Positions 28,337 through 30,355 of a stretch of DNA of 64,000 bases are shown here, one piece after another (position 1 is the stretch's first letter; each line of letters opens with the position of its first letter). The notes under the pieces were generated by a model. It saw nothing but the letters and a program-made list of their open reading frames with translations. It did no database searches and had not been told where the DNA came from. This DNA is from Shigella phage ESh25, in sequence record ON528735; one strand, 5' to 3'. The position numbers and the translations under genes are program-made.

Positions 28337-28367
28337 ACCAAAAAGCCCCAACCTTTTGGTCGGGGCT
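28337..28367 (-). terminator. rho-independent terminator (GCCCCGACC-AAAA-GGTTGGGGC plus TTTTT)
   Basis: 9-bp GC-rich stem and T run on minus strand; near-identical copy at 28893-28921. Confidence 0.6.
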
Positions 28368-28374
28368 AAGAATG

Positions 28375-28848
28375 TTATTTGATTTGTTTAGCAGACCAAA
28401 TGTGGTCTTTAATAATTTTTTGGATGTCTTCAACATACTCTAGGTCATGAGCATGTGGGTTATCTTTGAAACTATAAGCACGAGCTAGCTTTTGGCCTTC
28501 AGTTTTGATTACTAAAAGCTCTTTAAGGATAGCTTCATATTTAGAGATAATTCCTTTAACAATATTTTTTTCTTGTGTAGTTTTAGGGTCTGCTTTAGGA
28601 GCAGGTTTACCCGAAGCCTTTGCAAAAGCAGCGCCAGTAGCAACCAAACTTTTCCAGGCCATACTAACTGCATTCCCTGTAAATCCTTCGGCTTTCATAT
28701 CACGAGCAAATTGGAATCGTGATTCATCGGAAGCATCTTTATAGGAATATTTACCCGCGGCAATGGCTGCTTTTGCGACAGCTTGAATTTCGGTGCTAGA
28801 TGCTTCATTTAACACCGCTTCATTTAAAAATTGAGCATATGATTTCAT
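28375..28848 (-). CDS. putative head internal protein with capsid-targeting-like N-terminus (MKSYAQFLNEA)
   Basis: N-terminus resembles the T4 IP capsid-targeting sequence MKTYQEFIAE; late promoter TATAAATA upstream; flanked by duplicated terminators. Confidence 0.5.
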   Translation of the reverse strand: MKSYAQFLNEAVLNEASSTEIQAVAKAAIAAGKYSYKDASDESRFQFARDMKAEGFTGNAVSMAWKSLVATGAAFAKASGKPAPKADPKTTQEKNIVKGIISKYEAILKELLVIKTEGQKLARAYSFKDNPHAHDLEYVEDIQKIIKDHIWSAKQIK

Positions 28849-28884: not shown

Positions 28885-28892
28885 TATTTATA
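28885..28892 (-). promoter_or_regulatory. T4 late promoter (TATAAATA)
   Basis: Exact TATAAATA on minus strand about 35 nt upstream of the ATG at 28848. Confidence 0.5.
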
Positions 28893-28921
28893 CCAAAAAG
28901 CCCCAACCTTTCGGTCGGGGC
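28893..28921 (-). terminator. rho-independent terminator ending the tRNA/stable-RNA transcript
   Basis: GCCCCGACC-GAAA-GGTTGGGGC hairpin plus TTTTT on minus strand. Confidence 0.6.
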
Positions 28922-28924
28922 TAA

Positions 28925-29238
28925 GCCTTGCGGCAACCTTGTCGGGGTTCCACCTGCTAAGGCAAGTGTTTGTACGAAACGCCGGGATTCGAACCCGGTT
29001 ATTAAGCAGTTGACGCTACTTAATATTTTTAAAAGGCCATATCTCGACCATATCCGAACGTTCCGTCAAAAACGCTACTCGGCTTACGGCAAAGATATTT
29101 CCTCGAATCGATAATTCGGTGCGCCGTTTCTGCTGTGATATAAGGGGACATTAACAAAACATAAAGATTTATTAATGCCAGTCCTTAAACAGGGAACATC
29201 AGTCCGACGACTTACCGGTAGCGACCCGGCTTCTTGTT
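28925..29238 (-). ncRNA. structured non-coding region; includes a tRNA-like element (T-arm and acceptor stem, aberrant body), possible species-1/2-type stable RNA
   Basis: No plausible ORF; CCGGG-TTCGAAT-CCCGG T-arm at 28990-28974 with pairing CGGAACG/CGTTTCG acceptor-like stem but no canonical anticodon arm. Confidence 0.3.
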
Positions 29239-29314
29239 TGGTCGAGGCAGTAGGAATCGAACCTACGACCTAGGACTTAGAAGGTCCTTGCTCTTCCTTC
29301 TGAGCTATGCCTCG
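29239..29314 (-). tRNA. tRNA-Arg: tRNA-Arg (anticodon TCT)
   Basis: Cloverleaf folded by hand: 7-bp acceptor, anticodon loop CTTCTAA, T-loop TTCGATT, encoded CCA. Confidence 0.9.
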
Positions 29315-29740: not shown

Positions 29741-29746
29741 AAATAT

Positions 29747-30355
29747 TTATATATTGTTAATTTGATTTAGAATTCTTTTTGCTTGAGTATGACTTACGCC
29801 AATATGCTTAGCATATTTAGATAATTCACCCCGCTTAGAAAAATCATATAATTTAGAAATTTCTATTCTTCTTTTTCTTTCATCCGCAGAAACTTTTGCT
29901 TCGTTTGCTTTTGCTATTTTACGTTTAGCTTCTTGAGAATGAGTTTTACCAGCAAAGCCATTTTTCATTAATCCATTTGAAGACCATCCTTTTAATTTTC
30001 CGTTAGAATGTGCCTTTTTAACACCCAATGAAATTAATTCGCGTTGCTGATCTGTCATAGGATAATTATTTATATGATCCCATCCACCTTCACCTCCAAG
30101 TTTTAAATTATACACATCTGGTCTATTTAAAAACTCTTCTGTGACAATATTTTTCTCGGCTTCAAGCATAGATTCTTTATCATCAAAATACTCTAATATT
30201 TCTTTAGAAAAATTTTCTATGCCATATTTATCTTGGGCTCTTTTTAATAATTTACCAGAACCCATATATCCATCATCTAAATTTTCGGTAGAATGCACAC
30301 CAATATAAATTTTATTATTAATTTTATTTGTTATTTTATAAAGATAAAAATGCAT
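29747..30355 (-). CDS. segB: GIY-YIG homing endonuclease (SegB-like) embedded in the tRNA array
   Basis: GIY-YIG motif (YLYKITN...IYIGVHS) near N-terminus; likely start ATG 30355 with AGGGA Shine-Dalgarno (longer ORF runs to 30397). Confidence 0.8.
   Translation of the reverse strand: MHFYLYKITNKINNKIYIGVHSTENLDDGYMGSGKLLKRAQDKYGIENFSKEILEYFDDKESMLEAEKNIVTEEFLNRPDVYNLKLGGEGGWDHINNYPMTDQQRELISLGVKKAHSNGKLKGWSSNGLMKNGFAGKTHSQEAKRKIAKANEAKVSADERKRRIEISKLYDFSKRGELSKYAKHIGVSHTQAKRILNQINNI

Follow-up and report, generated by a model that had tools for sequence, protein, structure and literature searches.

Orthologues of the T4 species 1 and 2 RNAs at the end of a phage tRNA operon, with a predicted tRNA-shaped fold for rnaC

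Orthologues of two stable T4 RNAs at the end of a tRNA operon

The stretch under study closes a tRNA transcription unit in Shigella phage ESh25 (ON528735). The window, meaning the whole 64,000-nt stretch of DNA analysed, comes from a T4-like phage and carries nine minus-strand tRNA genes by ARAGORN and Rfam, the last of which is tRNA-Arg(UCU). The flagged stretch (28925–29238, minus strand) directly follows this gene and precedes an intrinsic terminator, and the transcription unit reads Ser-Thr-Met-Tyr-Asn-Arg, then rnaD, rnaC and the terminator. An earlier note on this DNA had correctly placed the stretch between tRNA-Arg (29239–29314) and the terminator (28899–28922), both on the minus strand. 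It had described a single element there; the stretch instead resolves into two separate RNAs and a 3′ trailer. In order of transcription, the features are:

29744–29751, minus: TATAAATA, resembling the T4 late-promoter consensus and found by pattern search just ahead of tRNA-Ser, at a distance of a few bases
29239–29314, minus: tRNA-Arg(UCU), by ARAGORN and the Rfam tRNA model (70.4 bits); the final tRNA of the second tRNA subcluster, adjoining rnaD on its upstream side
29118–29237, minus: rnaD, orthologue of T4 species 2 RNA, about 120 nt; from T4 alignment, RB6 annotation, and an 11-sequence alignment with consensus fold
29112–29117, minus: 6-nt spacer GAAUUA between rnaD and rnaC (AAAUUA in T4)
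28973–29111, minus: rnaC, orthologue of T4 species 1 RNA, 139 nt, tRNA-like; from T4 identity, covariance model R1 and RB6 annotation
28923–28972, minus: 3′ trailer, which is conserved in T4 as well and is trimmed off there when rnaC matures
28893–28922, minus: intrinsic terminator of the tRNA-rnaD-rnaC unit (stem 28899–28922 plus U tract), from a terminator scan; T4 has the same element

The pattern search returned 20 TATAAATA sites in the window where 10.3 were expected, and the site at 29744–29751 likely drives the Ser-Thr-Met-Tyr-Asn-Arg-rnaD-rnaC unit. Another site (28885–28892, minus) lies just upstream of a 157-aa ORF (28375–28848, minus) beyond the terminator. Two near-identical intrinsic terminators (28344–28367 and 28899–28922, minus) flank this ORF, and T4 has gene e.8 in its place; the ORF appears to be a gene cassette whose insertion gave rise to the second copy of the terminator.

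Both RNAs correspond base by base to annotated T4 genes. Directly after tRNA-Arg, the T4 reference record lists rnaD (‘small, stable RNA; species 2 RNA’, 119 nt) and then rnaC (‘species 1 RNA’, 139 nt). The window rnaC matches its T4 counterpart at 136 of 139 bases, with no gaps. The window rnaD, which begins one base past tRNA-Arg, is about 86–88% identical to T4 rnaD over 118 nt, with the differences mostly in a central hairpin. Covariance model R1 scores the window rnaC at 166.9 bits and finds exactly one copy in the 64 kb. Phage RB6, with the same tRNA order as the window, has both RNAs annotated at the homologous positions. A resemblance to the T4 species 1 and 2 RNAs had been among the suggestions of the earlier note. 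The alignment through rnaD, the spacer and rnaC, in agreement with the RB6 annotation, identifies the stretch as this phage’s orthologues of T4 rnaD and rnaC, which are known genes and not a discovery.

The surroundings are shared with T4 only in part. The order of tRNA-Arg, rnaD, 6-nt spacer, rnaC, trailer and terminator is the same in both phages, whereas the central hairpin of rnaD and the upstream tRNA set differ. The window has a tRNA set of the T2L/RB3 type that includes a tRNA-Asn gene, and SegB, a homing endonuclease of T4, cuts at the tRNA-Asn gene in related phages (PMC2330249). The tRNA-Arg(UCU) gene of the window is strongly diverged from T4 tRNA-Arg (locus L001, 3174–3248), next to an rnaC that is 98% identical.

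rnaC and rnaD have been known as small stable RNAs of phage T4 since the 1970s, the decade in which Paddock and Abelson reportedly sequenced species 1 RNA; its maturation is said to have been studied with host RNase mutants. The T4 tRNA region gives one primary transcript of about 1.75 kb, the precursor of eight tRNAs and the species I and II RNAs, which terminates after species I (PMC2330249). Northern blotting has validated T4 RNAC, which is classed together with RNAD among late RNAs ‘of yet unknown functions’ (PMC9697503). A 2010 review likewise gives the biological roles of the species 1 and 2 RNAs as unknown (PMC3014915), and in the searchable literature we found no paper assigning a function to either RNA.

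The stretch is neither coding nor a member of a catalogued RNA family. The only ORFs over it encode 81 aa antisense and 42 aa sense, and across homologues every frame is interrupted, near-identical relatives included. The earlier note had seen no plausible ORF, which agrees with this result, and we regard the ‘hypothetical protein’ ORFs annotated over rnaD and rnaC as not credible and, on the broken frames, spurious. Rfam holds no family for rnaC or rnaD, either at gathering thresholds or at E ≤ 10. Within 28973–29237, no tRNA was called by Rfam RF00005 (at least 29 bits) or by ARAGORN, and the best tRNA-related Rfam match to the stretch was tRNA-Sec, at 17.3 bits (E = 1.1). ARAGORN found neither a tmRNA nor a tag-peptide reading frame, and fragments matching the Rfam model tmRNA_permuted scored just 10–11 bits.

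Distribution among T4-like phages

rnaC and rnaD recur across T4-like phages. The stretch is common to 764 phage records at ≥80% identity, and to 804 with a more sensitive search. In most of these records it is unannotated or lies under ‘hypothetical protein’ ORFs, many listing ‘hypothetical protein (x2)’. More distant rnaC homologues occur in Gaprivervirus VR7, Kagamiyamavirus EcS1, Moonvirus Moon, Kanagawavirus ZX14 and PEi20, Karamvirus fGh-Ecl04, CW742 and KMB19, the Marfavirus Klebsiella phage MY02 and several metagenomic contigs. The matches listed by a loose pattern scan of viral contigs were mostly chance hits, which the covariance model removed; one rejected candidate, L008, was a chance pattern match in GC-rich coding DNA. 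A metagenome scan added three further rnaC loci, whose loop variants were all known from the other homologues. A specific pattern found no rnaC in 185,579 bacterial and archaeal genomes (one per species).

rnaC and rnaD behave as separate modules of the operon. The rnaC of EcS1, Moon and the Karamvirus phages has a tRNA gene on either side, at a distance of about 8–9 nt, and occupies the slot of a tRNA gene in the array. VR7 keeps both RNAs, with just two tRNA genes found within the fetched 2.5-kb region, and selection on rnaC and rnaD appears to be independent of the tRNA set. Two Dhakavirus phages (IME08 and ESCO10; loci L133 and L134) and one Yersinia phage have rnaD without rnaC. In IME08 and ESCO10, rnaD is directly followed by the trailer and terminator that in the window (28885–28985) and in T4 come after rnaC. 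Because the Dhakavirus rnaD joins this same trailer and terminator directly, rnaC is a clean presence/absence cassette; and since VR7 has both RNAs where the Dhakavirus and Yersinia phages have rnaD only, the two are gained and lost independently.

This distribution bears on whether the RNAs act only in cis, as structured spacers or 3′ caps that guide tRNA-precursor processing or block 3′ exonucleases, with the stable products as by-products. Both RNAs stand at the 3′ end of the operon in the window, ahead of the terminator, and in T4 they are processed from the same precursor as the tRNAs (PMC2330249), as such a role would have it. It nevertheless fits poorly with an rnaC that lies mid-array in EcS1, Moon and the Karamvirus phages, not at the 3′ end, and whose loop sequences and predicted tertiary contact, described below, are conserved far past the needs of a spacer. 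Dhakavirus operons, moreover, work without rnaC and with the same trailer and terminator. We judge a purely cis-acting role quite unlikely.

Folds of rnaC and rnaD

Covariation across genera supports a tRNA-like fold for rnaC. The earlier note had proposed such an analysis for T4-like genomes, and we carried it out on 20 non-identical rnaC homologues, sampling at least eight T4-like genera. The window rnaC folds with z = −4.1 against shuffles, a signal well beyond chance. The consensus has 43 pairs, 98.7% of which are paired across the 20 sequences; sliding the partners by one to three columns lowers this to 36–50%. Compensatory changes occur at 24 pairs, and none of 500 shuffles reached the observed values. 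From the 5′ end, the elements of the fold are:

29104–29110, minus: 5′ strand of the acceptor-like stem P1, CGAUUCG, pairing with 28975–28981
29034–29103, minus: P2 arm, with an invariant 3-bp AGG/CCU base carrying a long hairpin, P2a–c, that varies between genera
29064–29069, minus: apical hexaloop of P2, UUGACG, the exact reverse complement of the P3 hexaloop
29026–29033, minus: J2/3, a conserved A-rich single-stranded linker (UUUAAAAA) of variable length, 8–10 nt (alignment A6)
29000–29025, minus: P3, a 10-bp hairpin supported by covariation, with hexaloop CGUCAA at 29010–29015
28982–28998, minus: T-arm CCGGG-UUCGAAU-CCCGG, read from the sequence; its middle pair is G-C, U-A or A-U among homologues
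28975–28981, minus: 3′ strand of P1, CGUUUCG, followed by U-A (28973–28974), the 3′ end as annotated in T4

The arms would assemble as in a tRNA. One unpaired base separates P3 from the T-arm and none separates the T-arm from the 3′ strand of P1, giving P1 and the T-arm a 12-layer stack as in the acceptor/T domain of tRNA. The 3-bp P2 stem with its insertion takes the place of the D-arm, and P3 that of the anticodon arm. A tRNA-shaped molecule with an expanded four-way junction is thus a well-supported prediction. The perfect T-arm of the earlier note is confirmed on the minus strand as the 3′ part of rnaC, whereas the body it called non-cloverleaf is, in this fold, cloverleaf-like.

Individual helices are supported to different degrees. 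P1 reads CG(A/G)UUCG against CGUU(U/C)CG across homologues, with five Watson-Crick pairs and two invariant U·U mismatches. At its third pair, 7 sequences have A-U and the other 13 have G-C, and the covariation support for P1 amounts to one compensatory event. The P2a–c stems are 93–100% paired, with compensatory changes at 14 of 15 pairs and variation on one side only at the other; from genus to genus the helices of this hairpin are mostly replaced while pairing is kept. The AGG/CCU base is invariant and so gives no covariation signal. P3 has compensatory changes in 7 of 9 modelled pairs, and two of the three base changes that separate the window rnaC from T4 fall in P3, where both keep pairing (G-U to A-U, U-A to U-G).

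A second candidate for the acceptor stem was rejected. An internal CGGAACG in the window pairs perfectly with the 3′ strand of P1, CGUUUCG, and is probably the stem that the earlier note had reported. Its 7-position stem adjoining the T-arm does exist, although the 5′ strand is the RNA’s own 5′ end, CGAUUCG with its two U·U mismatches, and not the internal perfect complement. One pair of the CGGAACG/CGUUUCG stem is broken in 7 of 11 homologues, with no compensatory change, and five of the seven CGGAACG bases (positions 49–53) form the 3′ strand of P2c, all five pairs of which have compensatory changes. When the window sequence is forced into this stem, its folding energy goes from −50.1 to −36.8 kcal/mol, a cost of about 13 kcal/mol. 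ARAGORN uses a pairing of the CGGAACG type when it calls a 96-nt ‘tRNA-Phe(gaa)’ in the rnaC of Enterobacter phage KMB19 (L015, 1179–1274), and in GenBank record NC_054920 (hit H134) the equivalent site carries the label ‘tRNA-OTHER’. In both cases the 3′ two-thirds of rnaC seem to have been mistaken for a tRNA.

These two calls, and the paired hypothetical proteins of many GenBank records, are what would speak for a decaying tRNA pseudogene without function or for small proteins at this locus. The compensatory changes across genera, together with the retention of the RNA in VR7 beside two tRNA genes in the fetched region, instead indicate selection on the RNA fold, at odds with the degenerate tRNA that the earlier note had offered as one option. 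A pseudogene would also sit badly with an rnaC that is nearly identical to that of T4 while the adjacent tRNA-Arg gene strongly differs, and small proteins with frames that close even among near-identical relatives. We consider this pair of explanations extremely improbable.

The hexaloops of P2 and P3 are predicted to pair with each other. Each of the 20 sequences can form all six pairs, though the stems under both loops differ widely. Loops in the Klebsiella-phage clade read UUGGCG and CGCCAA, one compensatory change from A-U to G-C (four sequences). The two natural loop duplexes have energies of −5.5 and −7.6 kcal/mol, compared with only −0.4 kcal/mol for the mixed A/C combination; single-change combinations are much weaker or form wobble pairs. 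An intramolecular kissing loop that closes the body and buries the loop at the anticodon position is thus well indicated, though it falls short of proven because the compensatory change traces to one event in evolution. We found no description of this contact in searchable papers. In ColE1 RNA I/RNA II and in HIV-1 TAR-TAR*, two hairpin loops of 6–7 nt pair fully and form a continuous stacked helix. The rnaC contact is like these in its full loop pairing; it differs in being intramolecular, in lying within a tRNA-shaped RNA and in being predicted from sequence comparison.

The T-loop and the 3′ tail vary between clades. In one clade (the ZX14 clade: L004, L053, L137), UUCGAAU is replaced by UGCAUGC, so recognition that depends on the T-loop is not universal. 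The UGG that precedes the CCU strand of the P2 base reads UCG in the same clade (alignment A6, columns 81–83 and 128–134). This co-change, seen in one lineage, could reflect a contact like that of the tRNA D-loop GG with the T-loop. After P1, the tail is U-ACAA in the window and U-CCAA in the Klebsiella-phage clade (L013, L021, L037, L045, L136 and L138). In that Marfavirus-like clade the encoded tail is a true NCCA end, and its rnaC could in principle present a tRNA-like 3′ end. At the other terminus, the 5′ end annotated in T4, U1, precedes the first pair by one base and differs from a textbook RNase P product.

Two further resemblances concern tRNA-Lys. Sequences of the T4 type have CUUUUAA where P2 ends (window 29026–29036, minus; alignment A6, columns 82–95), the same heptamer as in the anticodon loop of E. 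coli tRNA-Lys(UUU). At this junction, CUUUGAA, CUUACAA or CUUAUAA occurs in other genera, with variable length, and the likeness may be a coincidence. The kissing helix would also resemble the anticodon stem of tRNA-Lys, and no conclusion here depends on either likeness.

rnaC shares the outer architecture of tRNA and departs from it in the body. Like canonical tRNA (RF00005), it has a 7-position closing stem adjoining a 5-bp T-stem, a UUCGAAU loop with the U54 U55 C56 R57 A58 pattern, a four-way junction and a slot in tRNA gene arrays. Unlike tRNA, it has a P3 of 10 bp with a 6-nt loop in place of an anticodon arm of 5 bp and 7 nt, no D-loop of normal size, two U·U mismatches in the acceptor stem, and an encoded U-ACA tail instead of NCCA. 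In the tRNA-like domain of tmRNA, in bacterial and phage YrlA RNAs, in plant-virus tRNA-like structures and in gammaherpesvirus vtRNAs, an acceptor/T-arm module engages tRNA-recognising enzymes and the body is not that of a tRNA. rnaC combines the same module with a non-tRNA body, but it has no Rfam match to any of the four, even at E ≤ 10. It also differs from YrlA in that its ends form the acceptor stem whereas those of YrlA form the Ro-binding stem.

rnaD is an independent structured RNA. Across 11 sequences, it has an invariant 5′ portion of about 56 nt that includes hairpin H1 (29214–29230) and an invariant 3′ block of about 25 nt, UCACAGCNGAAACGGCGCACC. Between them lies a variable central hairpin that has been replaced in three lineages and contains every one of the eight pairs with compensatory changes. 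Helices of invariant sequence are outside the reach of covariation, and the 11-sequence alignment and its consensus fold gave rnaD no supportable tRNA-like feature.

Several side observations concern rnaD. rnaC has two copies of GUAGCG (29073–29078 and 29014–29019), the complement of the H1 loop CGCUAC (29219–29224), making pairing between the two RNAs conceivable; both copies lie inside stems, one in the 5′ strand of P2c and one in that of P3. Marfavirus-like phages contain a 26-nt match, at 92% identity, to the 5′ block of rnaD about 450–500 nt upstream of rnaC (L013, 635–660; L037, 2330–2355; L045, 12822–12847). This match may be a remnant of rnaD or a diverged copy.

The folds also bear on whether rnaC and rnaD regulate host or phage mRNAs by base pairing, as small RNAs would. 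The term ‘small regulatory RNAs’ is used in PMC9697503, and the long invariant segments of rnaD would suit such a role. The most conserved loops of rnaC, however, pair mutually, its only long single strand is the A-rich linker of variable length, and there is no reported target. We hold base-pairing regulation to be very unlikely.

rnaC as a probable tRNA mimic

The most likely reading is that rnaC is a tRNA mimic excised from a tRNA operon. rnaD and rnaC make up the 3′ end of the operon, with minus-strand transcription stopping at the terminator at 28899–28922. The polycistronic precursor, as seen in T4, is cut into stable RNAs of about 120 and 139 nt, and we infer the same for this phage; for rnaC, the 98% identity to T4 is the basis for expecting a stable RNA of about 140 nt. 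P1 would stack on the T-arm as an acceptor/T minihelix, and the kissing loop would lock the body. The minihelix would serve as a handle by which the host tRNA-maturation machinery recognises, excises and stabilises rnaC. Since the encoded 3′ tail is U-ACA and not NCCA, rnaC should not be chargeable in this phage, and the mature RNA would act in trans as an uncharged tRNA mimic that occupies or recruits a protein recognising the acceptor/T domain of tRNA. Taken as a whole, this account of orthologous rnaD and rnaC cut from the tRNA operon, with a tRNA-shaped rnaC that acts as a mimic in trans, is one we consider highly probable.

What such a mimic would engage is a more speculative matter. T4 remains viable on laboratory hosts after deletion of the tRNA region, which makes any function of rnaC or rnaD conditional. 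When a T4-like phage was evolved on strain ECOR34, the sole mutation shared by all lines was in rnaD (PMC12685909, 2025), in a study that likewise states the function to be unknown.

In one specific version of the tRNA-mimic reading, rnaC is a decoy that soaks up a host defence or toxin attacking tRNA, such as an anticodon nuclease or a modifier of the acceptor end, and so protects the tRNA pool. The tRNA-like acceptor/T minihelix would equip it for this, and it is kept in phages with few tRNAs. The convergent ECOR34 mutation in the neighbouring rnaD hints at host-specific importance (PMC12685909). The T4-type CUUUUAA linker, with its tRNA-Lys(UUU) heptamer, would point the same way, but it is not kept in other genera. 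The loop at the anticodon position would, moreover, be sequestered in the kissing helix, and no defence system is tied to rnaC in the literature searched. The decoy, attractive as a special case, is therefore an unlikely explanation in our estimate. Equally tentative is the proposal that rnaC is a self-locked tRNA mimic whose minihelix engages a host tRNA-acting enzyme or an immune nuclease, with the kissing loop hiding the anticodon-equivalent loop.

These being the classical T4 species 1 and 2 RNAs, their identification carries little weight as a discovery. The alignments and covariance model built here would mend the missing annotation in most T4-like genomes and the gap in Rfam. The fold, the loop-loop contact, the invariant U·U mismatches and the way in which rnaC and rnaD come and go independently of each other offer concrete mutants and comparisons for the study of function, and the ECOR34 mutation in rnaD suggests that the role is host-specific (PMC12685909). 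If rnaC does prove to be a self-locked mimic, T4-like phages would have an RNA devoted to decoying or inhibiting some host activity directed at tRNA, which would explain why rnaC is retained even where most of a phage’s tRNA genes are gone.
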